62,202 nucleotides of DNA, filler included, from 5 parts of 5 records of this genome joined end to end with filler, not necessarily neighbours in it, one strand, 5' to 3'. Shown: positions 572 through 53,085, counted from the whole stretch's first letter. Notes: a model not told the origin generated them from the letters alone. Translations and numbers: made by a program.

Positions 572-578
572 CCATGAC

Positions 579-11984: not shown

Positions 11985-12670
11985 TGAGTGCGCGGTCGGG
12001 TGCCACCCGGCGGGGCCGCGCGGCCTCCTGGCGGGTCGGCGGCGGGTGGGGTGACGCTCACGAGGCGGGCGCCCGGCCGGGCCCGGTCCCGGGTGACGCC
12101 GGCCCGCCGAGGCGCCCCAAACAGCCGGAGCCCGGCCACTGCCTTGAGCCCCCGGGCCGGACGCGGTCGGGGCTCGGGGGCCGGGCGGCCCGGGACCCGG
12201 CGCGCGGCCGGGCCGGCGCGCGCGGCCCGCCGGGCGGCGCCGTGCGATCCGCGTCAGGCCTGAGTGCGCAGCCGGCGGCGGCGCCCCGGCTCCCGCCGGA
12301 TTTGAAATCGCGACAACCCCGCGGGCCCGGCAACGGCGCTCCCAAGGCAAAGTGCCGGGTGAGCGCCCGTGCCGTACCCGGGCGGCACGGCATTCATGAT
12401 TGTGCCGTCAGTCCGATGGGCCGGCCGGGCGCGCGGCCAATATCAGGGCACGGCCGCGCCCCAAACCGGCCGCGGGCAGGCCTTGATCATCATATGGCAT
12501 CCGGGACTTGAGGCGTGCCGGACCAGACTGGCAGACGGCGACCCGGCCGGCCAGCCCCGGCCAGTGCCCCGGCCGACGACCCGCAGCCGTCCTGCAGCCG
12601 TCCATCCCACTCCATCGTGGTCTGGTCGCCTTGGCCGTCGGCGCGACGTCAGCCTAGACAGGGGCCGGGC
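11985..12670. promoter_or_regulatory. Ultra-GC-rich island between divergent genes
   Basis: 12121-12240 has 12 A/T in 120 nt (90% GC); flanked by divergent starts at 11903 and 12735. Confidence 0.6.
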
Positions 12671-12734
12671 ATGATCCGTGTTGTATATAGACTAAATAAC
12701 ATGAGTTTGTCAGGTGACACTGAAGCTGCCAGCC

Positions 12735-13475
12735 ATGACGGAACCCGGAGAGGCGAGAGGGTGCCGCCATGTCTCGGGAAATTTGCTGCTTGGGTCCGCC
12801 TTTTTCGGAGGAGCAGTTCTGGCCTCCATCCTTGCCTACCCCAAGGAGGTCTGGGATATTGTTAGCTATGATGGCTCCGTGTTGGATGCTGGTATGTGAG
12901 GCGGAGGGCAAGGGAGCCGGCGGCCGGGACTCAACTTTGCTATGCAGCCATCAACCTCCCCCTTCTAGCAGTCACAACCGCGATTTATTTCAGTGCCTTG
13001 CGTTGCAGCTGCATGGCTGGGGTGTGTGGGCTGCTCTTCTGGTGCGCGTTTCAAGTCACTCTGTGCCTCTTTTTGCACTGTGTTGGTAAGGGCGCAACGC
13101 GTCGATGTGTCGTATGCAGTCTGACTGTAGGGATTCCCCGGTTTATTCTCAGGTATTTCGATAATCTGGAACGCCGAGTTCGGGGGCGTGCTTCAGAACG
13201 CGGTATGGTCCCGAGCATCCAATGGTGTCCGAGCATCTAGGGCCGGCGCGTCCAAGATGCGGGCGCACTTGGTGTCACCCGAGTCCACGGTGGACTTGCG
13301 CCATCCCAAGACCGCCATCGCGTGCGGCGTGGCAATGGGGCTCTTCTGCATCCCCGCTGACACATATTATCTTGCTCGGGATGTCACGGCCGGTGAATAT
13401 CTCACGACCACTGCGCACGTGTGTGCCATCATACTTGGCGCGGTCACTGTTGCACTTCTCAAGCAGGTGACGTAG
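12735..13475 (+). CDS. Hypothetical multi-pass membrane protein, about 3 introns
   Basis: Hydrophobic segments across ORFs 12714, 12896 and 13188 joined by GTATGT/GTAAGG/GTATGG...YAG introns. Confidence 0.5.
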
Positions 13476-13508
13476 ATTTGATTGAGGTTCTGTCTCGGCA
13501 TCATGTTC

Positions 13509-15755: not shown

Positions 15756-18700
15756 TTATTCGCCGGGGCCCGCTCGAGGGGCCGGAGCAGTGCTGCGGTA
15801 GCGGGTCGCCTCGTTCCTGCGCAGGTACTCCGTCTGAGGGTCGACCACCTTGTGCGCGGTGAGGCCGGCAGTCTGCGTGGGGACGGCCACAAGGGGAATC
15901 TTATCAGGTAGTTGGGCGTTGGCGTCGGCCGAGTCGGCGAGGAGGCACTCCAGGAGAACTATGGCCGCCTGTTTGTCGAGCCTACGGAAAACGGTTAGTG
16001 CGTGTCCCCCCTAGGACACACAGCACCTCCATACCTCTCGTTGTATTCTCCACATCTGAACAACAGGTGCAGAACGGGTCAGCCATCTAGTGATGTCTCG
16101 ACAACACAAGCCCTCACAAACACGAAACCACTCCAATGATGGAGCGCGAGATGGAGCCGCACCAAACCGAAAGTCACTTCCTTCACATACCTGGGCGTTT
16201 GAATGCACATTGGACAACCAATGGTGGTTCCACATTTGCATGCGTTGATGAGGTCGAGGGCCGCCTTAAGAAGCTGTGGGAGGTGCTTATACACACCTGC
16301 TGACACCCCACAGCCGCCTGGCTGCTTATCGAAAATGAGGATTCTTCGTGGCCTTTCCCGCTTCACGTCATAGGCACTGGGGCACTCGGTTCCTAAGTCA
16401 CAGTGCCATCTCAGTATGGACCGGACCCGAAACCCAAAGATCACTCACCAACGTCGGCGCGGTCGCATGACACGAATACCGGCAGCAGCTCCAGGAGGCA
16501 GTGGTCTATCGCGTGCAGACCGGCCCTGAACGTGAATGTTAGTGGCGATGCCACGGTACCATGGTTGAGCGGGCGTTGCTTGGGGGTCCAACTCACCACA
16601 GATCCATGCCATAGTCGTCCAGCACGCGATGAACACGGTCAGGGATTGGGCACCACACTGCCACTGTCTCCATCTCCGCGGGAGGGTACTTTGGAAGGGT
16701 GCACTTCTCGAGTACGCGTCCTGCAGGAGACTTCAGCGACAAGATATCCATATGACAACCACCAACCTGAGTGCTTGGCCAACCGGCGGTAACCATACAC
16801 GTATGTCTTGACAGTGGCCTTGCTGTAAACCGGCTGGGGGTGCAGCTCCTTGAAAGGAATCGCCACGCCATCGAGCCTCGTCAGCGCATTGATGACGGTG
16901 AGGTCCTGGCATTTGGTGTAGTAGTTCGGGCGGCACGGCTGGACCTTCGCCTCCAGCTCCACGCAGTCCAGCGATCGCACGATGTACTCCTGCGCCTGCT
17001 TTAGGAAGATGGCGCCCTCGAACAGTTCGAACTGAGCCTTGCGTGCGGGTCAGCTTTCCACACATGTCTGCCTAGATACCCAACACCCATTGCTCTTACC
17101 TTATGATACTCCGACTCATCGATGACTTCCCCACTGGCCTGGTCAATGACTTGGTACCTGCGGCTGTCTGCGCTGCGGATGTTCACGTCCTTGGCTGAGA
17201 ATCGTTCCTTGGGCAAACTGCAACGGTACCCATCCACACCCCTCACAATTCCACCATTTATCACCTGGCCGCTCACCGGAGCATCTGCCTTGTCAATCAG
17301 CAGCTCGAACAGACTCGCGTCATAGGCCGGCCCAAATATCGCGCTGTCCGTATCCTCGTTTAGAGCCAGCTCCTGCGCGGCCAGTAGGAGATGCTGCCGC
17401 AGGACGTACGGATTCGTGACATCCGCCGCGGCGCATTCGATCTTCCGACGAAGAAGAGAGTGGGGATTCCGCATGAAGTACTGGTCCACCGGCGTCTCGT
17501 GCGCGACGAGGATCGACATCGAATCGCGCCCGCTCCGCCCGCTCCGCCCAGCCTGCTGCCAGAAGCTAGCCATGGTGTGCGGAAGGCCGATCTGGATCGT
17601 GGAGTCAAGGGTGCCAATGTCCACGCCGAGTTCGAGAGCATTGGTGGCGGCAACTCCTAGCAGCTTCCCAGTGAAGAGTCCATTCTCGATCTCACGGCGC
17701 TCGGAGGCAAGATATCCGCTCCTGTACGCACGGATGAGCTCGGAGAGCTGTGGGGCGCTCTGCTTATCGAATATCTCCCGCGTATTCTTCAGTACCACCT
17801 CGGCGACCTTGCGGGCACGACAGAATACAAGTGTGCGCAGCCCGTGCCGCACCATCTCCGCCATCAACTCCGACGCCTCAGTAAACGAGCTTCGCCTCCT
17901 GTTCTCCTCGTAGAGCTGCATCGCATCGTCAGGATTCTCGCTCGTAAACAAGCGATCTAGTGTGGAGATGCCACTAAGTGTGGTCGAGACGCCACTCCGG
18001 GCCGACTTGGCTGGTGAGTCAGGTGGCGGTTCCGTCCTTGCCCGCTTCGCTGAGGGCGGACTCGAGGGTGGCTGGCTACACTCGGATGCATCGGGTGATG
18101 GCATGGGCGAAGGGGATCCTGGCACCGCTGCGTCCCGCTCCTCCCGGCGTTTCTGTCGGTGCCGCTGGTCCTTCTTCCTCTTCTGGTTGAGCCATCTTGC
18201 CGCGCCCCACGACACATCCTGGGTATTGGCGTTCTCGCCGCTGCCCTCCAAGACCCACGGGGGATTCCAGAAAACAAACAACTTCTTCCCATTTGGGGAG
18301 GAGTCCTTCGTGACGGCCACTATCTCATCGCACGCGGGGCTGCCGACATCGTCTCCGTCAAGCCCGTCCATCCCATCCTTCTTGCGGCGTCCCTCATCAC
18401 TGCGCCCAATCAGCATACGAAAGTGGTCCTCGGGGTTCGCTATGGTCGCACTGCAGCCAATGAACTGCAACCGACTGTTGCCGTGGTGCATGCACAGACG
18501 CCGCAGACGCCGGAGAATGCAGGCAACATGCGCGCCAAACGTTCCGGAGTACGTGTGCGCCTCATCAATGACCACATATCTGAGGTGCCTCAGCACCGCC
18601 CTCCACGTCGAGTGCCCGGGGAGGATGGAGTAGTGAAGCATGTCCGGATTCGTTAGGAATATTCTCGATGTGAGCCTGACGTGCTCGCGCTCTGTCGCCT

Positions 18701-19814
18701 TCGTGTCGCCATCGTAGGTGTTGCAGACAATGCTGTCAAGGCCCGGGTGTGACGCCGCCTTCTTACGCAGGGACCCGAGCTGGTCCTGCGCGAGAGCCTT
18801 GGTAGGGTACATGAAGATTGCAACGGCCTGGGGGTCCTCCACCAGAGTCTCAAACACCGGCAGCGTGAAGATCAGGGACTTTCCACTCGACGTTGATGTT
18901 GAGACAACACAACTCTTTCTTCTCTGGATCGCGTGAATGGCCTCCGTCTGGTGATTGTACAGCCGCGCCACCCCCATTGTCGTCAAGACCGCCTGCACCG
19001 GCTCAACCAGCACGGGTTGAGGGAGGCTACAGTCAGCCTCCCGGCTCGGAATTTCCTCAACATGTTCGATTTGGTCCTTGTATCCACTGTTCTTACGAAT
19101 GCTCTCAAGAATCCCATCAAGGCCCAGCTCCAAGCCCCGCTTGTCAAAGTTATCCGCACTCGGCGCCCCTAGGCACCCGCCCCCCGCCTGCCCTCCTTCC
19201 TCCATGGTTATCTTGGGAATATCGCCCAGTCTCAAAACAACCTTGGCCGGGTCAAAGTCGGGATGCCACACCCCCTCAGCAGCACCTGGCCACGCCTTCT
19301 CATCAAAGCGGCTTACAAACGTATCATGGGCCGCCTCAAGGTCCGCCACCAGCCTCTCTCTTACCGCCGCCCTCCTCTTATTAATGGCAATCTGACTGGT
19401 ATTCTTCTTGAACGGACCAATATTGAGCTCCAGAGCCGATTCCGCACCACCCTTGTACTCCGGGGCGAAGATGTCGTCTCTGGCCTTCAGGTCGATCTGC
19501 CGAACAGTCGCCATTTGTGGCCACTGCAGGCCTAGCATCTCCTGCACCCGCACCTCAAACTGGGCTAGCTTGGAGAACTCCTTCATGCGCTCTAGTGTGC
19601 AGGGGAGTTGCCTCTTCAATAGCAGACATGAAATGATATCCAGGGACACGAACGCCGCTAGCAGCGTCTCGAAGTGCGGGGGAAGATCCCGCTCCGGATT
19701 CTTCTTTTTTTTCGATCCTTTGGTGGCACGCGACCGTTTGGAGGCTGTGGAGCCGCTGGAGCCGTTTGAGCTGGCCGATCCGGCGGTGGCCGAGGACGAT
19801 GAACCTGTACGCAT
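15756..19814 (-). CDS. HRQ1: HRQ1 / RecQ4-family SF2 helicase with C-terminal DUF1998 Zn domain, spliced
   Basis: LYNHQ, TSTSSGKS, YPTKALAQDQ, TNPDMLH, IDEAH, SATIANP, TNALELGVDIG, QQAGRSGR; C-terminal CD...GGCG...CKC...GCPMC...C. First ATG 19814; stop 15756. Confidence 0.9.
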
Positions 19815-19949
19815 CCCGCCGCCCGTGCTGGTCGCCCGGCTGCTCACAGGGTGGCGTACCTCTCTTAAGGGGTTTGCTGGAGTTTGTGCTTCCTTATTTG
19901 ATTGGATCGTTGCAGTCCTCGTTCGGACACTGGACTCGGAGTGTGCGCC

Positions 19950-20900
19950 CGCGACGACCACCCGTCCGCCGCGGCGCGCGGTGCGAGTGGCCGGCCGTCA
20001 ACAGCGCCTCATGCCGGGGATTGGCGGCGGCCGCGTGACACTGCCGAGCCCCGCTGGCAGCCCCCGGCCGGCCGGGTCAGAGCCCGACCGGGTTGAGGGG
20101 ACGAAACCGCCCATGCCGCGCACCCGCCGCCCGCCCCGGCTGCCCGGTGGTGGTCCGGCCGTCCCGGTGGCCCCGCCGGGGAGGGGGGGGGCGGGGCGGA
20201 CGCCCAGTTTCCGTTCCAGTGGTGCCCCGGGCGGCCAGCAGGTGCTTTGGCCGGCCAGGACCGTCGGCGGCGGCGCGCCGTCGGCCCGCCCGACCGGGCG
20301 CGCCGCCGCCGTCCGCCACGCCCGACCTGACCGGGCCCAAAAACACGGCCGGGCCGGCTGAAACCGCGGGAAATCTCATTCCTGGAGATACGATCTCGAA
20401 GACTGAGATTGGCATGTTGTCTTCGGCCGTTTCGCAAGCGGTTCACACTCCCGTCCTGACGACGCCTGCGCCCCACCCCCGGCCCCCCGCTGACCAGTGG
20501 CACGGCACCAAGCCGGCGCACTGCAGGACTTGGAGTGCGTTGGGCCAGCCCACCTGCGCGACTCGGACGGCGCCGCCCGCGGCGGCCCCGGCCCCGGTCA
20601 TCAGTGACCGTGGCGCCCGGCCGCCGGCCTGCACCGTGGGCTGTACCGGGCTGTCCCGGGACGCCCGCCGGGGACCACATCCCCGGCCCCCAGCGGCGCG
20701 ACGCGCGGCCGCTCCGGACCAGCGGCACGCAAAGTCTTCGGGACCGGGACTCAGCCGGACCGAGCGCCCGGACGGCGACGCCCCCCCCACGACGCACCCA
20801 CGCAGGCCAAGAGGCGACAGTGGTTCACTGGAGTCGATTGCGGCGCCTTGTTCACAGCCATAGAGGGCTGTGGGGCGCCGTGGCGGTGCAGTGCCGCATG
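19950..20900. promoter_or_regulatory. Ultra-GC-rich island between divergent HRQ1 and LIM genes
   Basis: GC-rich, GGCCGG-dense; GC-box/G-run at 20178-20199; GCGGGAAA at 20366-20373. Confidence 0.6.
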
Positions 20901-21044
20901 ACGGGCCCGCACCGCTCGCGATGGGCTTGTCCCGCCTGATGGAACTCAGACCTCAATAGGTTGCAGGTTATTGATACATAAGCGCCAAACAGACCCTTTG
21001 CATATCCTCAGGACACTCGCGCAAAACGGGCTCTTATCCGCCCA

Positions 21045-22933
21045 ATGACTCAGGCAGACGACGGCCGCGAGGCGGTGTCGTCACTCTCCCAAGGGAGTTT
21101 CCCCCGGGTGGAGCAAGCCAGCCGTAAGGAGGCCGAGCACCTTGCTTTGGGGCGCGGAGCGCTGACCGAGCGGGCTGTGTGCGCGGGGTGCCATGGACCG
21201 ATCAAGGACAAGTTCCTCCTCGCCATGGGTAAGATGTGGCACGAGGACCACTTCCTCTGTGCCCAGTGCAAGGAGCCCTGCGGCGGTGGAAACTTTGTAG
21301 TGTACCAGAACAAGCCGCACTGCCTGACTCACTTCGGGCACAGCCTGGAGCCGTCGTGCGTGCGCTGTGAGAAGCCTATCCGGTCTGAGTATGTGGTCCA
21401 TAATCAGGAGCTGTATCATTGCGAGTGTTTCAGCTGCTCGCGGTGCAGCGAGCCGCTCCACGGACAAGTGTACTACAGCCTCGGCAACGGCGATGTGGAG
21501 TGCGAGGCCTGCAACCAAACCCACCTCCCGGTTTGTCGGGGCTGTTCCCTTCCAATCACAGACCAGGAGATCTATGAGCTGGGGGGCCACTGGCACCCGG
21601 CACACTTCCAGTGTGCGGAGTGCAAGAAGGAGCTGCTCGACGATGGCGAGTTCTACGAACACGATGGCCTGCCGTACTGCGCCAAGGACTTCACCAAGCT
21701 CTTCAGGGTGCGCTGTCGTATTTGCAGCATCCCAATTCAGTCGGAGATCAAGTATACCTCATGGGGGGAGCCGTACTGCGCTCACCATGACTCCCAGTAC
21801 CCGCGTTGCACCTTCTGCCACCGACCCACGGCCAAGAATATTAATGGTGGAGCGAGGAGATACAAGGATGGCAGGACGGTGTGCAATACATGCGGCGTTA
21901 ACTGCGTCCACGACGCCAAGAAGGCGGAGGAAGTGCTGGCGTTCGTGCGATCGGCCATGGAGAAGGCCGGAGTAGATCTACGGGTAAGATGCGAACTTTT
22001 GGTGTGTGTGTTGGTGTCGGCGCGGGCATAGTGGTGGTGAGGCGTGTCAACCTTGGTGTCACTGTCTCTCTCCCTCCTTTGTTTTGTTGTTGAAAATGGA
22101 TGATTCAAACTTGGGCTTACCCTGTCACCCGTAGAAAACCCACGTTAGGGTGGAGCTGGTAGAGCCGGCGGATCTGAAGCAGTTCAAGGAGTTTTACGAG
22201 GACCCATGTTCGCATCCTCACTGCATGCTAGCGTACAGTGCCCATCAGACCAAGGCCAAAGGTTCCGGGCCCAAGCCCTTCCGAGCAATCCCGGAGCGCC
22301 TGGTGTGCCTCAGTGGGATGCCGTTTGAGCACGTGAGTGGAACAGTGTTTGTGATATAGTGTTTGTGTGTGGCGGATCCTCTTAGTCCTGTGACGAATGA
22401 GCTCCCTTGGATCGGTGTTTGTATTTGATGTTGCGGAGAGCGTACTGTGCGATGGATAAGATTTCTGACGGTGGTCGTCACAGACTGCCGCGGCGATCGC
22501 CCATGCCCTTGGTCATGCGTTTATGATGGTACACAACAGGCCGGCGATGGCGGGCCCCATTAGCGAAGGCCTCTCCACATACTTTGAGACAGTGGTGCTT
22601 TCTCACCGCGGCGGGGACATCGCGGAGTTCCTGATGAGTGAAATTGACAACCGCAGCCATGCCGACCGGCGGTATGGACTGCGGGAGGCTACGAAACAGG
22701 TTCAGCGAACATCTCTCAAGAATGTGATCCAGTGCGTCTTGCAGCACAATAGGTTCCCCCGTACCTACTCGAAGGCTCGTGATGAGGACGGGAACCTGGT
22801 TCATAGGCGGAGGGTCGGAGACCCAGAACCCGTACCGATGCCCCGCTCAGTGCGCCGTAACAGGCCGAGTGGTGGGGCCAGCAGTCGTGAAGAGAGCCGT
22901 GAAGGAAAGAGCCGTGACGGAAAGAGCCGTGAC
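21045..22933 (+). CDS. Three LIM domains plus LIM-like and DA1-type peptidase-like domain, spliced, 3' truncated
   Basis: Three CxxC..H..C/H..CxxC LIM units, WGEPYCAHH...RCTFC...DGRTVCNTC DA1 LIM-like unit, AIAHALGHAFM...ISEGLS. Confidence 0.8.
22891..22933 (+). repeat. 15-nt coding tandem repeat (SREGK/SRDGK) at contig end
   Basis: About 3 copies of AGAGCCGTGA(A/C)GGAA. Confidence 0.8.
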
Positions 22934-28404: not shown

Positions 28405-28599
28405 ACAGCTCTGAGAAGCACCGTTTTTTTTGTGCACTTGATGTATTAGTACCTAACCATAGCACACCGCTGTGGCCGCGGTTCACCATACCTCAGTCAC
28501 TGTATGACGGACTGCACTTGAGGTCTCCAAGTTAGAGGGAATTGACAGTCTGGCTCCTGCGAGTGGGCGGCAACAGCGGACCACAGCACTGAGGGTCTT

Positions 28600-29295
28600 C
28601 GGGCTGCCCCGGCTGTTCACGATCCGGAACCATCCCACCCTTGGAAAAACACTACTCTTGGTGGCATCATGTCACGGGCGCCGAAGGCGCCGAACTTCGT
28701 CCGCGGGGACAGTCCCCGGGGCGGCTGCCGCAGCCCGGAGGCCGCCGATCCGCTGTCTGAGATGACAGGGGTGTTTCCCGCGCCCACGACAGCCACAGTT
28801 TCCCATCGATCGGCTTGGGTCAAAAGCCATCATCCAAATCAAAATTGTTTCCTTTCGATCAATATAATAGACTATAATAAGCGGTTGATCTCTATTGGAG
28901 CCGTTATTGAGTGTTTTACTTGAATACAACGATCGATGGCACGGCGGCGTCCGGCGGAGACGCACCGACGGCAAAGCCTGCATCATTGACCGAGCCGTGA
29001 TTCACCAGCCACACCAGTGGCGAGGCAGCCGTCGCTGCCGAGCTGCTGCGCAACCGTTGGCCGGACCATCATCGGGGGAGAGCCTTCTCCTGCCTCTCGG
29101 CCGTCGCGGATGCGGTGAATGATCACGGGACCGTCTGGCCAGGGACATGAGTCGCGAGCTGCTGCGGGCCTCCCAATGACCGGACGGTCCGGAGTGCCAC
29201 GACCGGAGCCTCCGCCGAAGGGGGCTCCGGGGCCTCCTGCGCGGCCGCTGGCGCGCGGGTTGGCCGGTCTAGCGGCGGCTGCCGCTGCCGGATGG
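28600..29295. promoter_or_regulatory. Bipartite GC-rich island between divergent FANCD2 and IQ genes
   Basis: GC-rich blocks flank an AT-rich core at about 28830-28930; TTTCCCGC at 28774-28781. Confidence 0.5.
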
Positions 29296-29315
29296 AGAAA
29301 CCGAATAACCCTACT

Positions 29316-37294: not shown

Positions 37295-37378
37295 GCGAAC
37301 CGCCACTCCAGCATGCAGGCAAGCTTAGAGCTTAGTAAATAAGCAAGACACTTACACAAACAATTGGACTTTCCGGTC

Positions 37379-40648: not shown

Positions 40649-40844
40649 GAAAGAGCTACGACTCGCAGTTTCCCGACGCCATAAAAGCACATCAACTGTG
40701 TCTACTATCCAGTTGGGAAATGATTTTAAACGTATTGGACTCAAGTGTCGGAAAGACTGGCTGATAGCGGAGCTGAGCGTCAGCCCCAGTCTGCAAGGGG
40801 CGTGGTTGGCCTCTTGGTTGGCTATACCGGCCCAACAGCAGCCT

Positions 40845-41086
40845 GAGCGCAGCCGCCGGCCTCGCCGCCCCGACCGGACCGGGAGTCGGAGCGCCCGCGC
40901 CGCCCGGCCCCGCGCCGGGCTGGCAGCAGGCGAGTCGGCGCGGGGGCGCCGCCCCCGGCCGCCCCGGGCGCGCGTCAGACGGGAGCCCCGGTCGGCGGGG
41001 CCGCGGCCCTGGCCGGCACGGCGGCCGCGGCTGGCGTGCGGGGGCCCGGGACGGCGCCGGTTTGGCGCGGCGCTCGGGGCGGCGTG
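40845..41086. promoter_or_regulatory. Ultra-GC-rich island upstream of SCYL2
   Basis: 40861-41040 has 20 A/T in 180 nt (89% GC); abrupt switch to AT-rich sequence near 41090. Confidence 0.6.
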
Positions 41087-41625
41087 AACTGAACAGCCGT
41101 TATAGCTATGTATAGTATCAAATCGTATTCCGAAGTTCGGGTTTTACCCCCATGAATGGCGATATTTGAGGTGACAAAGAAATCAGGCCAAAGTATGAGT
41201 GCATCACTGATGCCCGCGGAAAAAAGCATGACCTAATGTATAGCTTTGACCGAGCCATGTGGATCGGAACGAGTCGAGGTCTACCTAACCGCGGTGGGTT
41301 CATCTAAGAACACCAAAAAGTGCTGCAGCTGTCCTTATCGCTCGAAGTGCTTGACTAGTACTGGCAGTTCCCCGATTCCCTAAAGGTTGCCATCATCAAC
41401 ACCTTTCTAAGCTAGTTTCCAGAGCATCAATCTATTCTATTGTCTGCCAGAAGCGACTTGACGACTGCAAGGAAATGCAGTACAGCCCAACAGTCCCATG
41501 ACACTAATGAAGTAGCAATACCCCAACCCAGCACTGTGCACGTCGACAACAAAGAAACACTCCAATTTACGAAACGGTAGAGTATGACAAAAATGAGAGC
41601 CCTGCCAATCACAAGCCTCACTACT

Positions 41626-42394
41626 CTAATCCATGCGCCCCTTCAAAGTGCGAGTAATCACTCCGGTAGGAGTTCTGTGTTTTCCTCGTAAATTCCCGGA
41701 ATAAAGAAAAAAAACATACTCACATTACTGACACAATTCCACCCCAACCAGAAAGGCAGTCTCTATCCACAGCAGCAAGCAAGCACTGGCTGGCAACTTC
41801 GAACAACTCCTCGGGATTCTACGCAATAAATAGTCTTAGGAAAATCGAAGTGCCATCACAAGACCCACAGTACCATTCCCGGCCTCCAGAAAGTCTCACA
41901 AGTACCCAATAGATTCTCATTTGCAGTTCCCGCACAGCAGAAGGAATCAGACTTAACAATGCAACCAAGGAGATCCATATCACAGATAAACGGCTTGTTG
42001 TCCTTGTCAAGGCCAGCAACAATGGGCTCGATGAACCAAGGACCAAAACGGCGAGCGTAGAGAGTAGAAGACACCAAGTTAGCCAGAGTTTCCGGCTGAA
42101 TGTCACGCTCCTCCTTCAGTTTATACATGTTCACCTGAAACTTCAACTTCTGCAAACTAGGGTATTCTATTAGCCAGATATCTTCACCTATAGTCAATAT
42201 TCATACACTGTCTGAATATCGGTCGCAAGCCCACTCAAACCAAGAAAGGTCTTATCGTTAATCTGGAAAGCCTTGGGGAAGTCACAAGATACAGTTTGCT
42301 GCTGAACGCCCAAACGCAAGTCACTGGCAATTGCAACGCAGTTTTCGCCGCACATAGCAATCACAGCGGAACCATTGTGCTCAAGGATCGACAT
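41626..42394 (-). CDS. PSMB3: 20S proteasome subunit beta-3, 3 introns
   Basis: MSILEHNGSAVIAM, GLATDIQT, RRFGPWFIEP, DRDCLSGWG, TLKGRMD*. Confidence 0.95.
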
Positions 42395-42929
42395 CTTGCC
42401 CGCTTGCTATCCCTGCTGGTTCTCTCAAAATTTAAATATTTGACCAAAACGAGTTTCACCGCTAGGCGTTGACTGCGGCTGTGCATCGCAAGAAAGTGAA
42501 AAGTAGCAATTCCTTCTTGGGTAAAGTGGGCGTTCCGCGGGTGGGACGCTGTGCAGAAGCACAACATGACAGGCCTCACATACCGGCCGCCAGCAAGGTG
42601 GTTCAATATGGAACAATAGCCAAAATGGACAACCCCGCCAGCCATCAGGCTTCCACTTGAGCAGCCAAATGGCGCCCGGCCGTGCCTCACTGCGGGCTGG
42701 CCTTCCAACCGGACATCGCATGACACTTCGCACGCCCAGCACGGAAATTGGCAGCGCCAACCACCCTCTGCGTACGAGGGAAACCAGACAACGAAATTGA
42801 ACGGGTCGACTCGGGAGTTACCCTCGAAATACCAAGATACTATAGAGATTGTCTGAGATACTATTGGGATTGTTCGACCAATTTGATTTTTAACCCTCAA
42901 GACCAAACCAGCCGTCCGGTGGAGCTGAG

Positions 42930-43320
42930 CCGGCCACTCACAGGAAGCCGGCCGGTGCCTTTGCCAGCGGTTCAGCGGGCCTGAGTGGTTCGTTTCATAC
43001 CGTACTGACATGGTGGGCGAGTGGCCGGCCGGCCCGGCGCAGTCGCCGCCGCGAGGCGCGTCCGCCCGTCGGCCCAGGGCCATATGGTTGCGCGGCCCGG
43101 CCCGCCCCGACGGCGGCCGCCGGCCGGCAGGCCCGGGCCCCACCCGGCCGATACCCCGGCCCACCCCCGGGCCCTGCCCCAGAACTCCAGCATGAACCGG
43201 CGCTGGCCAGTCGGCAGATCGGCCGAGCTTCAGCGTCCACGCCCTGGTCTGTCCCCAGCAGAACTGCCACTGGCACCCAGCCTCCAGCGTCGCAACCGCG
43301 TCCCGGTAGTGGTCCGCTGT
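42930..43320. promoter_or_regulatory. GC-rich island in the bidirectional PSMB3/RPN7 promoter
   Basis: GGCCGG-dense block between the divergent starts at 42394 and 43448. Confidence 0.6.
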
Positions 43321-43447
43321 ACCGCAGTCGTATTTGGAGTGCTGCCAAGAGGCCCTACTGCAAACGAGTAAGCTCTCCGCGAACAACATATTCCAATTTT
43401 TAGTGACAAATATTTGAATTTTACGAGGTTAAGCGGTGAGGGTTGTT

Positions 43448-44828
43448 ATGGCGTACACCGAGGAAGATATCAAGGACGTCGTGCCCCAGTTGAGCTTGGC
43501 ACAGCATAGGTTCACGCTGTCCCTTGATGATGATGTTGCTAACGGGTTCAAGAAGGATGAGGCGAAGGCAGAGCTTGAAAAGGAGATCAAGGCTCACAGT
43601 AAGTAGATATTGATTTCTTTGGAGAGTCTGGTGTAACTGCTGGTGCAGATATGGTAAATTTCTATGAGGACACATGCAAGCGGTTGAACTGGATTGTGGA
43701 CGAGAAACTTGTCGCTCAGATGAAGGAGGCTAACGCGAAAGTTGTTGCTGACTTGGATTCCAAGGTCAAGGAGGCCGAGGAGCAGGAGGGTGAAAACGAA
43801 GTTCGTGAGCTGATGCTTGCCAAAGCCGAGCATTACGTCCGCATTGGCGATAAGGTGTGTTGTAGTTCCCCTTATAGCTTGAGTGTGCCTTACAAGCCTC
43901 CAGGAAACTGCCCTTGTTTCTATCGAGGAGACTATGAAAAAGACTATTGGCCTTGGCCAGAAGCTTGATCTTGTTCTCATGACTATCAGGATGGGCTTTT
44001 TTGTTGACGACCATGATCTTATTAAGAGCGAGATTGATAAGGCCAAACAGCTATTGGATAAGGGTGGAGACTGGGAGAGGAGGAACCGCTTGAAGGTTTA
44101 CGAGAGCCTGTACCTGATGACCATCAGAGAGTCCAAGAAGGCGGCTCTTCTCTTCCTTGAGTCTGTGGCGACCTTCACTGCTTATGAGCTCATGGACTAC
44201 AATAGATTTGTCTTTTACACAGTTCTTACCAGCGTTGCTTCTCTAGATCGTAATACTCTCAAGTCTAAGGTATTGGGATTGGTTACGCGATAGCACATAT
44301 AATGCTGATAGGGTGACTTGTAGGTTGTTGATGCACCCGAAATTCTTTCTGTGATTAGGGACATTCCCCACATATCGCCTTTCCTGAATTCGCTTTATGA
44401 GTGCAAGTATGATGAATACTTTAAGAGCTTTGGTAGGTGCATTTCCGGTGTGTGTCTCGGTTTTTATTGAGACTGTATTCCTAGCCGATATCTGTGATCA
44501 GATTCGCCTGGACCGGTATATGTCCCCCCATTTCCGTTTCTTCTGCAGGGAGTACCGCATTGTCGCCTATACTCAGTTCCTGGAATCTTACATGAGCGTC
44601 CGCTTGGAACGCATGGCTGAGTCTTTCGGTGTAACCACTCAGTTCATGGATCGCGAACTGGCCAAGTTCATCGCAAGTGGCCGTTTGAACTGCAAGATTG
44701 ACAAAGTTGGCGGTGTTGTGGAGACCAACCGTCCTGACAACAGAAACGCTCAGTATCAATCGACCATCAAGCAGGGTGATATTCTGCTGAACCGTATCCA
44801 AAAGCTCTCTCGCGTAATCGATATGTGA
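43448..44828 (+). CDS. RPN7: 26S proteasome lid subunit RPN7/PSMD6, 4 introns
   Basis: [58 protein letters not shown]. Confidence 0.95.
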
Positions 44829-44925
44829 ATAACATGTACGCGAACGCCTTTGAGTCTGTACAGGCTCCATTTGATATTCACTCTCTGTGAGATAAATATG
44901 TGGAGCAATCAACAATCACATGAAA

Positions 44926-47313
44926 TTAGCTTGCTTGGCTTCTTGCTCGCCTGCCATGTCTTGCCACACGGCTTGGGCTACTCGCATCAACGTTCTTGCT
45001 GCTATAGGCAAGAGAGTACCATTCCATATTCGGATCACGCTGTGGGACGCGCGGTGGAGCTCTAATGGGAGAACCTTCCTCCCCCTGCCCACCAAAGATG
45101 TTTGTTTTGGTAGGTGAATACGTTCCCACATGTCGCCCGTGCTGGGCAGCATAGGTTTCTCCAAAGGCACTCGTGAAGCCGGACGCAGGAGCTTCTGCAG
45201 CCGCGCCCCATCTTTCAGCCTCCCAAGTGAGTACATTACTATCTTGAGGTTTCCTCTGCCTTCTTCCATGAGGCGATGGCGAGATGTTGTGTAAGATTGG
45301 TTTCGTGGGGCTATCTGACTTCACCGGGCTTGGCAATAATTCAGGAGTACTCTCCTCACCACAAATGTGGTCAGCCCACCCCTTGCAATCACTCGAGCAA
45401 AACACCTCTAGCTTGTTACAGTGTCGGCATGGCTGTTAGCAAGAGTAAGGCAGGCTGAACGGAAGCTACACTGACAAAGCCCACGACCAACCTTCAAGTC
45501 GACGCGATAAGGTGCCCCCGATGGTCTAATACCACAATAGAAGCACTTTTCCAAATCCGTCGCAGACTTGTAGCCTGGAACATCTCCAGTAACCATTGTG
45601 GGTGGAATATCTGCCAATGTGTTGTGCAGAGCCAGTACAGTGGGCTAAATCTCGACGTCAGCACAACACTATTGTCATGGCTATGTCCAACATACCTGAA
45701 ATGGGGTCACCTTGACAATTGGCCACAACCTGTACATCGCTTTCTCCGCACGCCGGGCCTTTGATACAAAAAATGTTGCTCGTGCTCGATTGTCTGCAAA
45801 TTTGTTCCATGGCCGTGGTGCTTCAAAATCAGTTGCTCCTGGAAGTAACCTAGTGTCGGCATTCACCGCAGAGATTGCCGCTGCTGTAAACATTAAGCCA
45901 GCGAATCCATGATGAGTCAGGGGTGCTAGCTCCATGAATTGACAACAATGCTCATAACACATTTTCCATCGTCCCTGCATCATCTGTCAGCACATTCCCA
46001 ACTTGTGCTCCATAATACCAACCTGATCTGCTGCGGTGTTTGCTATTAGCTCGGAAACTTCAAGCTGTAAACAGCCATCCATTTCATAGCTCAATTCAGT
46101 CTCTTTGTAGGAACCCAGAGTTTTCTCGTTGCGATGTGATTGTTTTTCATACTCGTAGTCTCGCAGAATTCTGTGGTCAGTTCCAGGGATGTAACGACGC
46201 GGAGGCTGCGTGCTAGCCACTCCGTACTCATTCTTGTATTGCCTTGGAGAGGGAGAGCGATTCATCGTTGCATTTGGATACCTGTTATGGAAGTCGTCTT
46301 TCAGTTTGCGGTGCACTTCCTTTGCTGTGTACAGGTTCCGAAGAACTTTTCTAACTGCTCGCTCCCCGGCACCCATTCCCCTTTCATCGTATTTTTTGAG
46401 AATGCAAGTCGCATGTAAAAACAGAAGCCAAGGGTCATTGGGAAACAATTCAAGTGCACTACTAAACATTTTCTCGGCCTCGGAACACCGACCGCCCTCA
46501 GCCATGATGGCATACGATCGCACAGTGATAGCATCCCGACTACGTGAGTCTTTGTTCCTAAGTACATTTTCGGCGAGTGATACTACGTTTTGACATAATG
46601 CAACTCGTCTTTCTCCGAGAGTGAACATCACCCAGTCACACGCCCCCTTACACTGGCGAAGAGCAAGGGCTAGCTCAGTGCACTTAAGCGCGGCAATGTC
46701 TTCACTGTCCCTCCACCCCGTTTCATCCCGTTCAATGACTCCGGTTGTCACCTGGTCTTTCCATACCCTTCCTGCACGCACAAATGCTTTCCAGTAGTGG
46801 CTCGAGACTTGATCTTCTGTCAAGAGTTCGTTCCATAATCGTACGTTCTTCTGAGGAAGACTCAGGGGATCGTCACCCCCAAGAGTCTTAACGCCAGCCT
46901 GGCCACTGACACTGTACGACTTCACCAGTGCTTGAAATGCGACTTCTCGAGTAACTTCGCTTAGGCCAGGACGAACAAGGAACTCTAGCAAGCACTGCTG
47001 AATCTCAGAGTGTCCACTTGCAGCTGGGGAAACGCTACCATCTATCTGTTCAATTAAGTCGAGTAGGATACTGACGTGCTGGCCCTCATGAGCACCAAAC
47101 AAAGAGCGTGCGAGCCGATTTGGAGCCATTGCTAGACTCTTGTGCTATTGTTTATAAACCATTTATAAACCATTTATAAACAAAAAGCTTTGAAAAGACC
47201 TGGTTCTCCATTCGTACCGGACCTGGAAACTTGTTCAGCGATTCTGATGATGGAGAGTCTCTCCGTCCGCCAAGTCTCTGACTATCCATGGATGGCGGTG
47301 TTGAGCTAGCCAT
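44926..47313 (-). CDS. Hypothetical helical/TPR-like protein with a degenerate MYND-like Zn finger, spliced
   Basis: EAEKMFSSALELFPNDPWLL (TPR-like); CFYC...FCSSDCKGWADHIC; 5' exon from 47313 joined in frame by intron 47145-47199. Confidence 0.55.
47151..47181. repeat. 11-nt tandem repeat (ATTTATAAACC) x~3 inside a predicted intron
   Basis: TTTATAAACCATTTATAAACCATTTATAAAC. Confidence 0.9.
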
Positions 47314-47519
47314 AGTATCTGTCTGATTGACTACATGAGTAGCAGCTTCGATGCTTTGTTGGTGACGGATGCGTACCGTCCTGGCTCTGCGGGGGTGACG
47401 ACTTTGGCCATGACCGCGCCTTTCAGACCTGACACTGGCGACCGTAAACCCGGCACGCCCCGGGGAGCTGCGTTGCGGTGACTCACCATGACCGCCGGCA
47501 GTGGTCGACACTAGGACAT

Positions 47520-48245
47520 CCGTCACAGCGGCCCCTGCCCCCAGCCGGCTGCCCGGCCCCGGACGCCAGCCGGCGGCACAGTTGCCCGCCCCCGTGACGT
47601 CGGCCAGCACGTAAGGCCACCGCGTGTACACGCGGCGCTGTGCGGCGCCGGAAGCCTGGCCCGGCTGGCCGGCCCGTCATCCTGGCTCCCGGTCGCGGAT
47701 CAAGTTCAATCTCCCGGCTATCTCGCTGCTCACTCCGTCCCCCAAGGAGGAGCAGTGCCTGGCGACAGAATGGCAAAACTGACACACGTGTCAATTAAGG
47801 CCGCCGGGGAGGCTGGCCGCGGGCCCCGTGACCGTCCACTCACGGTTGACTCGGAGGCCGGGCCGTGCCGCCGGCGGGTACCCAGCGCCCGCCTCGCCCG
47901 GGTCGGCCAGGCCGGCCATGGGCCCCCCGGGGCCGGGCCACCGCGCCTCCGCCGTGGCCCGCGCGCCGGCGAGCCGGCCGACCGGTCGGGCGTCAGCGCC
48001 GGCCCGGGTGGGCCAGCCCCATGCGGCGGATCGGGGCCCGGCCTGGGCCTCGCCGCGCGGCTCGCCGCTCCGCTCTCGGCGTGAGACTGAGAGCGGCGGG
48101 GCGGCGGCCCCCCCGAGTTGGGCCGGCCGGCGGCGGCCTCACTCACTCAATTGCACTGGAACCATAGTGTGGGCCACCGGGCCGGGGTCAGTGAGTGGCC
48201 ACGATCGAGCGTGTGAACGGCACGGCGGCCGAAGTGGCGGTCGGA
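47520..48245. promoter_or_regulatory. Ultra-GC-rich island between divergent genes
   Basis: GC-rich block dense in GGCCGG/CCGGCC, between starts 47313 (-) and 48352 (+). Confidence 0.6.
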
Positions 48246-48351
48246 GATCAGCGTGCAGTACCGACCTTTGTGTAAACCAGTCGAAGCTCCTCCAACAAAT
48301 TAAACCTCATAAAATCTTGAGGCTGACTACAGTCAAATACAAAGCTTAAGA

Positions 48352-49325
48352 ATGAGGCATCCCGACTATGTAGCGAAAAGGGTTGCAGACTGGGAGGCTC
48401 TCACCTCTCAGGGGAGCTGGTTGGTATTTGTGGGGAGACTGACTGACTCGGCGCGAACTGTCTTTGCATTGATGGAGAAGGACACCAACCCTTTCTATCT
48501 ATCATCCTCAGAGTACGGCCTCGTGATATCTCTAGGTGATGTTCTACTAGCTAACCGGCGCGTATGTGCAGTTGGGTGGTACGGGCTCATCATATCGAGC
48601 TTTTTGTGAATCCTCAGGTGCATTTTTCTCCCATACTGAGCATGACTACCGAAGTTGACTGTTCGACCCTGGCAACGCATGTTGGTCGGACATCTCTCAC
48701 ACTTGAACATGAAGTACGAGACGTGACGGCAGGAATCGTTGACGGAGTGCCCCCGGAGTATGTGATCCACTCCACTGTGACCAAGCCTGCAGCACCTTGT
48801 GTTTTAGCACGGATGCGCAGTACAATATGTCTTGTTGACGAGAAGACTCAGTCAGCGGCTCCATTGACTAATCCTGAGCTCATGAGAGAACATTGCAGAC
48901 CGTCCATTATGTCCTCCGCTTCACTGCAGAAGGTTGAACCTTTCAATCCTCCTTCCGAGAATGCGGACGGAAATGTGCATGTTCACGAATTCGTTGTCAG
49001 GCCCAGTGATTGCGACGGCCTCTCTCACATTAACAATGCTACTTACTTCGCCCTGTTCAATAACGCTCGGATTGACCGCCTCACTTCGCTCCACAAAAGG
49101 TCTTGGCAGGAGCTTCACATAAAGTCAGCACTGTCGCACGTCTACATCGAGTATATGGGTCAGCCAGGTGCTGGGGAGAAGCTGTGCATTCTGTCTTGGA
49201 CTGAAGATGAAAGTGATGATATCTTTATGGCAATGCTGCGCAATGAGAACAAGCAGATAATCTCCAGATGCCGCATGACTTCAATGGACAGTGCATCTAA
49301 CCAGATCCAAGCCTCACGGTTGTAA
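48352..49325 (+). CDS. Double hot-dog acyl-CoA/acyl-ACP thioesterase; 5' exon structure uncertain
   Basis: HVGRTSL in the first hot-dog; VRPSDCDGLSHINNATY in the second. Confidence 0.72.
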
Positions 49326-49351
49326 TATGAATGGCAGACCCTGAAAGTGGA

Positions 49352-52255
49352 TTAAGGGCGATACAATATGAGGTCTCTATTGGCAAGATAGTAAGTCACG
49401 GCGCCCATTGATCGCATATATCACATCATACCTCAGATATGTGACTTGTTCTTGGAGTTCAAATATCCTCAGGCCAGATAGCCTAGACATAAGCTTGTAC
49501 AGTGCAAGACAAGGGCCAGGCTGGATTTTTTCTATCTTTGCAAAAGTGTCTAGATGAAGTCTATAAATCTCACAGTATCCCTCGGCAACTACATCACTAG
49601 GAGTTCGTCGAGTGGCAAGACTTGATGCACCAAAAGCCGCAGGTGCAAAGACACGCTTCTGCCTGTACTCTAGCTGCATATTTTGATCAATTACACGTCT
49701 GGGTTAAATAAATGTACGGACCTTTCCAGTTTTAGGATCCTCAATGTGATTCGAATGGCAAATGACGCCAAGTCTTATGAAGGCAATATAGTGCATTTCC
49801 TGCCCTTGAGAGTACCAAACATCTCCGTCATTAAGCTTAATCAACTCAACATAAGGCCACAGTGAAGACAACTCCTCGGAAACGTTGGGGACAATCGCAT
49901 CAAACTTCTGCATAAGCGAAGTGAAATCCGCTATCCCCTTTTCTTCACTTTCCGCAAGCTTGATTGGCTTGACTATAGGGGAGAGTTCATGGAGCCCTGG
50001 AGTAGCGAGCAAGTTGTCACTTGAGAGGGACGTTGACAACTGCAACCTATTTGATGACAATTGTCGTGATGTAGATGCCTGTGGAAAAGCGTTATCGACA
50101 TTTTCGGATATACGTTGTTGAGATGGTACTCGGGCATGGTGCTGGCTCGACAAGTATTCCTTTCCAAGAACATTGTATAGTATCATCTCCTCACAATGCT
50201 CAAGGCCATGGTCCATATCACCGTTAAACCGCACCTTTGAGTCAACACCAGTGCGCATCAATGCTCGTTGATGACGTTGGGTTGCTGCTGAAATAATCAC
50301 ATGAACCCTATAAACATCATGTCCCAGTTGACAAGCCTGCTGAATCTGCAATGCAGCAGAAGAATCCAACTCATTGACAAAGGCGAAATCCAAAATTAAA
50401 AACTGCTGTTTCCTCGAGTTCTTGTTGGTTTCCCAGATCGAAATAAGCTCGTTAGTGATTTTTGGCACACTACAGAAAAAGAGGTAACCCTGCAACCTCA
50501 CAATATGGATTGCATCAGTGTTGTCATCAAGAATTGAGTTGTGACTCATGGGTCGATCGACATGGCTACGACGCTTGACAGTTCGACCAGATTTGTAGGG
50601 CCTAATACCATTGAAATGCACAGACTTTTTCAGGTATAGGATGAGTGACAGCAACGAACCGACAGCAACTCCCACAGGAATGTCCCATGGCGTCTCTACC
50701 ACGAGCCCCATCCCGGCCGTGATTAAAAGAATACCATACTCGGACTTGCTCATACGCCGCGCAGAGCGGATCATCCATTCCATTGTGATATCGGTCCCAG
50801 TATCCACCAGCAATGCTCCAAAGACAAACCTGGGGATATACTTGATATAAGTACTTCCTGTGATTGCAAATATCGCACATCCAAGGACCTATTCGGAAGG
50901 TTAGCTAGTGGTATATAAGGGTTTTGCATGACTTACAGCGATTATTGTTGGTACTCTCGAGGATGCATTATTCTTGACATTGATTGTAATCATACCAAGT
51001 GCTTGTGTAGATGTAATAAACCCTCCCACAAGCGACGCCAAGACATTGCTATAACCGAGCAACATTACGCTATGACGATAATCAATCTTCTTCTTGGTGG
51101 TTCGTTCAACCCCAGCAAGCATCAACGAAATCTTGATCAAGAATAGGGCGCACATTACCACACTTGTTGTAAAGGTTGCTCGCACTGCAATATCCCATTG
51201 CACCGATCGAAATGACAAAACTCCGAAAGACTCAAAGAGTGTATGGCCGCCTTCAGGCACCTCCAGGAAAATATGGTGATGTGAACCAGCGTCACCATAC
51301 GAAATGCCAAGAATGAAGAGTGTCAAATAGGCAATTGCTGATGACACCACTACCAAACCAAACTTTCCAAAGAGGGCAACAGACGACGGTAATTTCGTAG
51401 TAAGGCGAAAACCAGCTGACAGCAAGATAGTGGGAAGCATTAAGATGAAAGCCTGGCGAAGTCCATCCAAAGAATTGAATGCCTCTGCAGGAGTTTCACC
51501 GCAAGCCATTGAAAACCCTCCTGGATGTTTGTGAGCACATAATATATTTGATAACTTCAGTCACAAACCTTTGTATAACATGAGTCCAATGCTAACGACG
51601 AATCCGGCCGTAACAGGATAGGGAACGAAAGCAGCCACTTTGGATACCCCTAACCAGGTCGCTATCATCAATACCAAACCAGCAAATACCCCAGTCAAGA
51701 CGAGAGCAGCTATTGTGGTTGACAATACAACCTCTTCTGAAGAGGAGTAAGTCAAGGCATTGTCTGCTGCAGATGAAGCTATGCCAGACAAGAAGAATGT
51801 CAAAAATATGTCGGGTGCCGTATAGTCCATATGCGTTTTGCTGTCAAGAAAGTAGTTTCAGCGAGAAAATATCATGGTTCGCCGCCCTCATACCTTCTAA
51901 ACACCACAAATACGTTTACAACTACTCCACTAATACCCAGAGCAAAAAAACCAAGGTTTACGTGTGGAAGCAGCCTTTCATGAACAAAGATTAGCTGTAC
52001 AATACTCACACCTGCGACCAGGACCAGAGCAACACAAAATATGCCAGAGAATACGTTCACAAGAATAGACTTGAGAGTCCAGGTTTCAATTATATCGTCT
52101 TCATAGCTGGATATCTCCCGTACCGATGTTTCAAGAACACCCTTGTAGGGAAGATAGCCCTGGCTTGGCGAGTCCATATCCTCACCCTGAAGTTGAGAAT
52201 ATCTCTGGCGAGCTACAGTGGACTTTGCTGCCTTTACCGACTGGAAGGTGTCCAT
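49352..52255 (-). CDS. SulP/SLC26 transporter with STAS and cNMP-binding domains (yeast Vsb1-like architecture), spliced
   Basis: FVPYPVTAGF, multiple TMs, IVRLQGYLFF..LILDFAFVNELDSSA (STAS), DMDHGLEHCEE, cNMP-like C-terminus; last intron 49377-49431 gives stop at 49352. Confidence 0.82.
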
Positions 52256-52329
52256 CCCTTCGTTTCATGGAAAAGTGCGGTGCACTAGATGACCTTACGG
52301 CGCACGGCACATAAATATAAGACACACCC

Positions 52330-53085
52330 GGTGGCCCCTTGTCCGGCCCCTGTTCGCGCCGCCGGATGGTAGTGATGGTGGCGCACTCTGCTGCTGCCGG
52401 CCGGGGAGCCGGCCGGCGCCGGCGGTGCCGGGCTCGCCGGCCGCTCAGCTTCAGTTGGGCAGCGGCGAGCCAGGGCCGCGGTGACCCGGCTTCCATTAGT
52501 GCGCGCCCCCCGGTGCCGGCCCCGCGGCCCGGCCCTCCGCGCGCACTTGCGGACGTCGGACCCGGGGCGGCCCCGGGCGCCGGCCCCCGCCCGGCCCGTG
52601 AGGCGCTCCGCGGCGGACCGGAGGCACTCTGAGAGATGGCGGCGCGCCGGCGCGCCGCGGCGCCCGGGCAGCCCCCGGCGCCGGTCCCCTCAGGCAGTCG
52701 GAGACATAATGATTAGAAGTCTCATTTTGGTGTCTAGAGGGAACTTTCTCAAAACTCGGCTGTTCAAGCCGGGTGTCATCGATGCAATCTCAATCTCGCG
52801 GGCGCCACCAAAAGGTGGCTGGCGAAGTGACTCGGCGGCCTGCTGCACAGAGTGCCCGAGCGAGGGTGCCTCCATAAACGGCACTTTATCCTGCTATGAT
52901 CAAGACTTTCCGGAACTCGGGTCTGCCGATGCCAAATTCGGTGACCGGACTGGAGGGCCCCCAAACCGGGGATCAGCCGAAGTCGATCCGGCGATCAACC
53001 GCGGCCCGGGGGCCCCGGGCGCACTGGCGCCCTTGACGTCCCTACGGGCCGCCGACCCCCGATCTACTGATTGACCCGGGGCGCT
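52330..53085. promoter_or_regulatory. Bipartite GC-rich island between divergent SulP and p25alpha genes
   Basis: GC-rich blocks 52330-52690 and 52990-53085 around a hairpin-rich core. Confidence 0.55.

Follow-up and report, generated by a model that had tools for sequence, protein, structure and literature searches.

Extremely G+C-rich non-coding islands in the upstream spacers of TATA-type promoters, mostly between divergent genes, in protist DNA from a mixed assembly

The stretch of DNA analysed here, hereafter the window, comprises 62,202 bases and consists of five contigs joined by N44-TTAATTAATTAA-N44 spacers. Its three eukaryotic contigs carry eight strand-symmetric, non-coding blocks of extreme G+C content, here called islands. 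We are confident that these islands are located in the upstream spacer of TATA-type promoters in a compact, intron-poor genome, and that most of them are common to two divergent genes. As to their origin, we tentatively favour GC-biased gene conversion (gBGC) at promoter-anchored recombination hotspots, assisted by slippage.

The islands were called by a 100-bp scan at a threshold of GC ≥ 70%, which recovered the same eight blocks that an earlier note on this DNA had listed by eye (Table 1). They measure 120–1200 bp and contain 70–78% GC with cores of 88–90%. Outside the islands, the GC content is 57.8% in the first eukaryotic contig (9782–22933; 60.2% overall), 49.5% in the second (23034–30964; 50.6%) and 48.3% in the third (31065–56822; 50.7%), and 15 introns defined by complementary DNA (cDNA) have a pooled value of 40.5%, as opposed to 88–90% in the island cores. 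The hand counts of the earlier note were exact: 90.0% GC at 12121–12240, 88.9% at 40861–41040, and 12 CG against 18 GC dinucleotides at 33781–34080. The islands have very abrupt edges, with a drop from 88% to 52% GC inside 50 bp; successive 50-bp bins across island 5 and its surroundings contain 44, 64, 76, 90, 90, 86, 88, 52 and 44% GC. Islands 2, 3, 7 and 8 show a middle dip of 90–220 bp. In the bacterial contigs of the window, no block longer than 100 bp reaches a GC content ≥ 70%.

Table 1. Islands and promoter-like elements in the window, with their gene context.
Feature	Position	Strand	Size and composition	Context
Island 1	11941–12680		740 bp, 76.6% GC	Minus-strand gene start on the left; TATATA 12684–12689 and ATG 12735 on the right
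Island 2	19741–20940		1200 bp, 73.4% GC, dip ~20341–20440	HRQ1/CDT1-like helicase (−, ATG ~19814) / LIM (+, ATG 21045)
Island 3	28651–29320		Bipartite: 28651–28800 and 29011–29320	FancD2 (−, multi-exon) / IQ-motif gene (+, ATG 29554)
Island 4	31651–31770		120 bp, 70.8% GC, smallest	Q/G-rich open reading frame 31070–31444 (−, weak evidence) / TPR-CHAT (+, ATG 32183)
Island 5	40771–41120		350 bp, 78% GC, core 88.9%	SCY1-like kinase 5′ end (−, ATG 40650) on the left; proteasome gene 3′ end on the right
Island 6	42951–43300		350 bp, 75% GC	Proteasome beta-type subunit (−) / RPN7 (+)
Island 7	47451–48200		750 bp, 76% GC, dip ~47700–47790	Gene of an uncharacterised 380-aa protein (−, ATG 47129) / thioesterase-like (+, ATG 48352)
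Island 8	52321–53110		Bipartite: 52321–52730 (78% GC) and 52921–53110	SulP/STAS transporter (−) / spliced gene (+, ATG 53458)
TATA-like 16-mer CAAATATTTRAATTTT	42427–42442	−		19–34 nt upstream of proteasome mRNA 5′ end 42408; ATG 42394
Copy of CAAATATTTRAATTTT, one R-position difference	43407–43422	+		16–31 nt upstream of RPN7 cDNA contig start 43438; ATG 43448
TATA box	52312–52320	−		26–34 nt upstream of SulP mRNA 5′ end 52286; island 8 starts ~8 bp beyond
TATA-like repeat of TTTATAAACCA	47151–47181	−	2.8 copies, perfect tandem	22–52 nt upstream of ATG 47129, as if a TATA box had been triplicated

Start codons were assigned by the first in-frame ATG, by homology and, for four genes, by cDNA. 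An island is located no more than 600 bp upstream of 11 of the 12 starts, at distances of 0, 53, 105, 121, 149, 153, 234, 322, 349, 413 and 557 bp; random placement of islands within the contigs yielded a mean of 2.59 such starts and a maximum of 8, and none of 5000 trials reached 11. The twelfth start (ATG 14459) is preceded by weaker GC peaks only, namely 64–68% at −300 to −400 and one 100-bp bin of 81% near −900. Downstream of stop codons or ends of open reading frames (ORFs), no island was found within 600 bp in any of eight cases, the nearest being at least 829 bp away and one of these ends having no island on its contig. A start-anchored GC profile rises from 47% at −100 to −1 to a peak of 74% (median 78%) at −400 to −301 and gives 49–53% in the genes, and the stop-anchored profile shows 48–55% downstream. 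The proposed link of the islands to gene 5′ ends, and their absence from convergent 3′ ends, is therefore well founded. The islands do not abut the 5′ ends as had been described, but are separated from the ATG by 50–560 bp of about 47–60% GC.

Islands 2, 3, 6, 7 and 8 clearly lie between divergent genes. The same probably applies to island 1, because the TATATA at its right edge is followed by an ATG 50 nt on, and to island 4, for which the assignment depends on a Q/G-rich ORF without family match. The junction at island 5 is tandem, as cDNA places the 3′ exons of the proteasome gene on its right, and this island marks a single 5′ end. The seven divergent pairs claimed in the earlier note thus comprise five confirmed and two probable cases. 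None of the convergent junctions that could be defined carries an island. Counted by hand, opposite orientations occur in 10 of 13 pairs of neighbouring genes (one-sided binomial ~0.05); this is suggestive, not proof, of an arrangement of the genome into such pairs, and the statement that islands organise the genome into head-to-head pairs overstates what about 47 kb can tell. In four divergent pairs, the ATG-to-ATG spacing is alike at about 1055–1231 bp (19814–21045, 42394–43448, 47129–48352 and 52255–53458), with islands of 350–1200 bp.

Contigs, not reads, of a public run designated X1, the kind of which is absent from its record, were aligned over 40001–54000 only (14 kb). All 12 aligned pieces were at least 99% alike, with 12 single-letter differences, and the contigs skip 18 segments, the 15 listed ones being 48–58 nt long and ending GT..AG or CT..AC. 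These joints together with the high likeness identify X1 as cDNA from spliced transcripts of the same strain or a very close one. The 15 introns (41675–53875) are uniform, with a length of 48–58 nt, 33–49% GC and GT..AG ends. The cDNA fixes strands and introns of the proteasome gene (−, exons to at least 41577), RPN7 (+), the SulP gene (−) and, right of island 8, a plus-strand gene that had gone unnoticed; RPN7 without its four introns is an open frame of 391 codons. The minus-strand SulP transcript contains two more introns and extends to at least 49223 (49223–49722), thereby overlapping the convergent thioesterase-like gene at its 3′ end, where the ORF stops at 49325.

Three cDNA contigs end with loose adaptor-like letters, at 42401, 42408 and 52286, which we take to be the template-switch adaptor of SMART-type cDNA synthesis marking the mRNA 5′ end. 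For 42401 the assignment is ambiguous, since the genomic sequence itself has CCC at that point. The two other 5′ ends are located outside the islands, the one at 42408 by 543 bp and the one at 52286 by 35 bp. According to these adaptor-marked ends, the 5′ untranslated regions are short: that of the proteasome gene has 14 nt, and in SulP the first ATG comes after 18 nt and the main ORF after 31 nt. The first ATG of the SulP mRNA (52268) opens a 28-codon frame overlapping the main ATG 52255 (52253–52268), a possible case of an upstream ORF or leaky scanning.

The TATA-like 16-mer CAAATATTTRAATTTT is present in exactly two copies in the window (0.14 expected), one ahead of each divergent proteasome gene, and may be a common TATA-like or a proteasome-regulon element. 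Other ATGs are likewise preceded by AT-rich elements, for example the TTTATAAACCA repeat. Since the mRNA 5′ ends are located outside the islands and TATA-like boxes about 30 nt upstream of them, the core promoters are AT-rich and TATA-type and lie in a flank of 40–540 bp, with the islands beyond. Where cDNA exists, the order is island, AT-richer flank of 40–540 bp with a TATA-like box at about −30, mRNA 5′ end and, 14–31 nt on, the ATG. The islands are thus spacers upstream of the core promoters and are themselves neither core promoters nor 5′ exons, and the term promoter islands used in the earlier note does not apply in the sense of CpG islands. No X1 contig covers any of the four islands within the aligned 14 kb (depth 0), which is no sign of non-transcription.

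Inside the islands, the hexamers GGCCGG and CCGGCC together occur at 15.5 per kb, compared with 0.14–0.26 per kb elsewhere in the second and third eukaryotic contigs and 2.2 per kb elsewhere in the first. The density that the earlier note had seen for these words was therefore real; the same had been said of CGCG, which is in fact rarer than in dinucleotide-preserving shuffles (73 vs 91.4, z −2.3) and owes its abundance to composition. Against such shuffles, CCGG (158 vs 88; the most enriched 4-mer), CGGC, GGCC and GCCG are over-represented at z 6–9, GGGG is under-represented (46 vs 70.8), and identity at lag 2 is anticorrelated (z −5.4). The word excess and the lag-2 anticorrelation indicate that doublets of G tend to alternate with doublets of C, in a (GGCC)n-like manner. 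Perfect arrays stay short, (GGCC)n reaching n = 3 at most, and runs free of A and T extend up to 47 nt. Degenerate tandem repeats of period 11–22 and one 49-nt pair were detected inside the islands by TRF and a further repeat finder, and the word GGCCGGCC has 11 of its 14 copies in the window within islands (1.9 expected in islands, 1.45 in the whole window). All islands together contain four motifs of the G-quadruplex (G4) type, and they show no consistent GC-skew switch. A/T-containing words are not convincingly recurrent in the islands. The motifs ACGTGTCA and CAATCTC were not significant. The element ATAGTATC occurs five times (0.62 expected), at 41112, 42836, 42857, 47312 and 50177; four copies are near islands 5–7, two of these within a 21-bp tandem repeat (42835–42873), and the copies do not face the islands in any consistent direction.

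The islands are non-coding and non-repetitive and belong to no known RNA family. An all-vs-all blastn comparison of the eight islands, the check named in the earlier note for a repeat family, returned short low-complexity matches only, the best between two islands being 94 nt at 74% identity, and terminal inverted repeats or target-site duplications were absent from the edges of the seven islands examined; transposon copies are thereby dismissed. Translated 5′ exons fared no better: period-3 power was 0.66–3.0 in all seven islands tested, below the shuffle 95th percentile of 3.24, and 2.45–14.8 in 14 coding segments, and none of ten long island ORFs matched Pfam. One frame runs open from the kinase gene across island 5; its GC1, GC2 and GC3 (G+C at the first, second and third codon positions) are all 0.72–0.82, and its product is nonsense-like. 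The sole coding intrusion is in island 2, which contains the initial ~70 bp of the HRQ1-like coding sequence, a stretch rich in Ser, Gly and Ala. Rfam searches of the islands gave no match at E ≤ 0.1, and no tRNAs were found.

Which process could produce such blocks? We consider it plausible that the islands are the footprint of localised GC-biased fixation on promoter-upstream DNA. The process would be gBGC at meiotic recombination hotspots that are anchored at promoters and have very short conversion tracts; slippage of short GGCC/CCGG-type motifs during replication would contribute cryptic repeats and length variation. The resulting duplex would be nearly A/T-free and very stable, would not nucleate TATA-dependent initiation and would probably hold nucleosomes, so that the islands would delimit the two promoters. 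Such a barrier role is an unlikely though conceivable consequence, and the lack of a consistent advantage over shuffles in single-strand folding into hairpins or cruciforms (z −0.35 and −2.33) speaks against it. Taken together, origin and consequence form the best explanation we can offer, at somewhat below even chances. A gBGC hotspot should centre a GC peak on promoter DNA, and this is what the start-anchored profile and the permutation revealed; the contrast between introns and island cores, together with the word excess and the tandem repeats, likewise counts for a localised compositional process. Precedents exist for GC-rich recombination hotspots at promoters or in divergent intergenic DNA: yeast hotspots are described as GC-rich, nucleosome-free and located at promoters (10.1101/119768), the 0.6-kb RPO41-BSP2 intergenic region in MAT of Cryptococcus is a GC-rich recombination hotspot (PMC3390403), and dogs and birds, which lack PRDM9, have their hotspots at promoters (PMC3861134, 10.1101/023101).

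Several observations weigh against gBGC with slippage. A hotspot should also leave a decay of GC content into synonymous and intron sites, which was not found, although very short tracts could evade this test. The rise of GC3 toward the islands is inconsistent, with two of seven genes rising by at most 0.04. For the first 50 codons versus the rest, GC3 is 0.54/0.50 in TPR-CHAT, 0.50/0.54 in the SCY1-like kinase, 0.48/0.48 in the 380-aa protein, 0.44/0.55 in the IQ-motif gene, 0.68/0.70 in HRQ1 and 0.76/0.75 in LIM; clear rises are confined to RPN7 (0.70 vs 0.60 overall) and SulP exon 1 (0.54 vs 0.34). Introns near islands stay at 33–49% GC. The sharp edges are too abrupt for ordinary conversion tracts, and the GGCC/CCGG word pattern is not predicted by gBGC alone. 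GC3 is about 0.70 in genes of the first eukaryotic contig and about 0.50 in those of the other two; the first contig, with islands of the same kind, may be a GC-rich compartment (isochore-like heterogeneity) or derive from a separate related organism. Contigs alone cannot show RNA ends, and the inference of 5′ ends relies on adaptor letters in two or three genes. Finally, the sample of eight islands in about 47 kb of eukaryotic DNA is small, and it is for this sample that the descriptive conclusions hold firmly. Chromatin function and gBGC, both raised in the earlier note, are candidate causes; for gBGC, the GC peak at promoters was found and a consistent spill-over into GC3 and introns was not.

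The main rival, which we regard as possible but rather unlikely, is that the islands are selected A/T-free spacers acting as anti-promoters or insulators, inert and nucleosome-binding, that keep two promoters apart. If initiation depends on short AT-rich boxes, an A/T-rich spacer would fire cryptic transcripts, and selection would therefore keep the spacer almost free of A and T and free of runs prone to G4 or Z-DNA formation. This agrees with the onset of island 8 only ~8 bp past the SulP TATA box, with sharp edges in the absence of consistent GC3 spill-over, and with the A/T-free runs of up to 47 nt. Also in its favour are the depletion of GGGG and CGCG beside enriched GGCC/CCGG-type words, the few G4 motifs without a GC-skew switch, and the similar ATG-to-ATG spacing in four divergent pairs. 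Per-site selection for G or C would, however, be extremely weak, implausibly fine selection is needed, and the proteasome gene has an upstream flank of 540 bp, untranscribed as far as known, with a GC content of just ~55%. No precedent for such spacers was found in the literature.

It is improbable that the islands are CpG-island-like platforms, in which dense unmethylated CpG would recruit CXXC-type factors while methylated gene bodies slowly lose CpG. The observed/expected ratio (o/e) of CpG is 0.92–1.10 in islands, or 0.87–1.06 by the scan that called them, higher than outside (0.79–0.86), in long exons (0.81–0.89) or in introns (0.70), at a density of about 15 CpG per 100 bp. Relative dinucleotide abundances (rho) are at expectation in islands (CpG 1.01, GpC 1.03) and shifted outside (CpG 0.82, TG 1.20, CA 1.16), where the o/e of TG+CA amounts to 1.14–1.16. 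Moreover, CCGG is the most enriched 4-mer and the islands are located at gene 5′ ends. By size and composition (≥200 bp, G+C >50–55%, CpG o/e >0.6), seven of the eight islands, each at least 350 bp, qualify as CpG islands, the eighth being 120 bp long. The bulk DNA, however, is not strongly depleted of CpG; its depletion is mild and could be ordinary dinucleotide bias. The earlier note had rightly judged methylation decay probably insufficient by itself, as a bulk CpG o/e of 0.79–0.89 is not vertebrate-like, and 88–90% G+C cannot be reached by CpG retention. In the genes with cDNA, initiation does not occur inside a TATA-less island: mapped 5′ ends and TATA boxes lie outside, unlike those of CpG-island promoters. 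No methyltransferase or CXXC gene is present in the window.

Still less probable is a function as replication origins, with the islands serving as licensing landmarks between divergent genes. They would then be a G+C-rich mirror image of the A+T-rich islands that act as replication origins in divergent intergenic DNA of fission yeast, or an analogue of the origins found at mammalian CpG islands. The likeness is confined to position, a size of 0.1–1.2 kb and the divergent-intergenic preference, and one island per 2–6 kb would be far denser than the origin spacings known from other organisms. That the islands are artefacts unrelated to promoters, be it a family of transposons or miniature inverted-repeat transposable elements (MITEs), translated low-complexity 5′ exons, structured RNA genes or a chimera with high-GC bacterial DNA, is hardly credible and already largely refuted: long open frames do traverse islands and the HRQ1-like coding sequence reaches ~70 bp into island 2, but mutual homology, terminal repeats, duplications, codon periodicity and Pfam or Rfam matches are all missing, and every island is contig-internal and takes the same gene-relative position in three contigs.

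As two bacterial contigs (1–9681 and 56923–62202) stand beside three eukaryotic ones (9782–56822) in the window, the source assembly is a mixed bin. The bacterial contigs encode a solute symporter, GlyQ, EPSP synthase and a DUF2207 protein, and an epimerase, a GT2 glycosyltransferase and a DUF2333 protein. The eukaryotic genes encode an HRQ1-type helicase with a CDT1-like N-terminal domain, a LIM protein, FancD2, an IQ-motif protein, a 1703-aa TPR-CHAT protein, an SCY1-like kinase, a proteasome beta-type subunit, RPN7, a thioesterase-like protein and a SulP/STAS transporter. The first exon of FancD2 was sought and not located. The top match of the protein sequence encoded by the RPN7 exon used as query shows 62% identity over 76% of the query, and matches with at least 88% coverage, mainly from plants, reach 58%; the SCY1-like kinase is about 30% identical to plant proteins. 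For the HRQ1-type helicase (17001–19961, −), the sole full-length match combining CDT1 and helicase domains is one EukProt transcript with 34% identity over most of the helicase. A metagenome scan with the HRQ1-like helicase yielded six loci, all with at most 49% identity and uniformly high or low GC content, and no related locus; an exact 40-mer search and an RPN7-exon scan of genome contigs gave no match. The first eukaryotic contig opens with a run of 25 C at 9782–9806, which may be an artefact of sequencing or assembly or else belong to the edge of a further island.

A protist with blocks of 88–90% GC next to, and not over, its TATA promoters would constitute an independent natural experiment on how gene starts come to be marked by base composition, and on which driver is at work: recombination, chromatin or selection against cryptic initiation. 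In practical terms, the islands serve as predictors of where genes start and how they are oriented in a lineage that is uncultured and without reference genome, and blocks this rich in G+C are likely to cause breaks in short-read assemblies or loss of coverage.

Promoter-linked G+C islands are textbook knowledge for vertebrates. With vertebrate CpG islands, the blocks described here share a size of 0.2–1 kb, richness in G+C and CpG, a CpG o/e of about 1, a position at gene 5′ ends that are often head-to-head, and dense CCGG. They differ in reaching 88–90% G+C, in a bulk CpG o/e of 0.79–0.89, in the lack of a GC-skew switch and the few G4 motifs, and in mapped 5′ ends and TATA-like boxes that lie outside the island, whereas vertebrate initiation takes place inside a TATA-less island. 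The A+T-rich islands of fission yeast likewise measure 0.5–1 kb and are divergent-intergenic in a compact genome, but the composition is the opposite. Cryptically simple or microsatellite-like sequence shares the excess of short words, the degenerate repeats of period 11–22 and the variable length; here, in contrast, perfect (GGCC)n extends only to n = 3, and the blocks are restricted to one genomic context with uniform composition across loci.

Yeast and invertebrate promoters are described as AT-rich with low duplex stability, and vertebrate promoters as GC-rich (PMC5852095). For protists, no precedent of such islands was found in the literature, supplementary files aside. The gBGC hotspots of yeast (10.1101/119768), Cryptococcus (PMC3390403) and dogs and birds (PMC3861134, 10.1101/023101) share intergenic GC peaks between gene 5′ ends, a location at promoters and the conservation of position rather than sequence; in our case the contrast is more extreme, the edges are sharper and the rise of synonymous and intron GC is not consistent. 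One can speculate, with considerable doubt, that a genome-wide class of nearly A/T-free, (GGCC)n-flavoured blocks directly ahead of TATA-type core promoters evolved independently in a protist lineage as barriers related to initiation, nucleosomes or supercoiling that bound mostly bidirectional promoter pairs. It is similarly doubtful, but would follow the same line, that such barrier blocks are compositional landmarks of promoters, convergent with vertebrate CpG islands and obey a different logic, because the promoter lies beside the island and not inside it.

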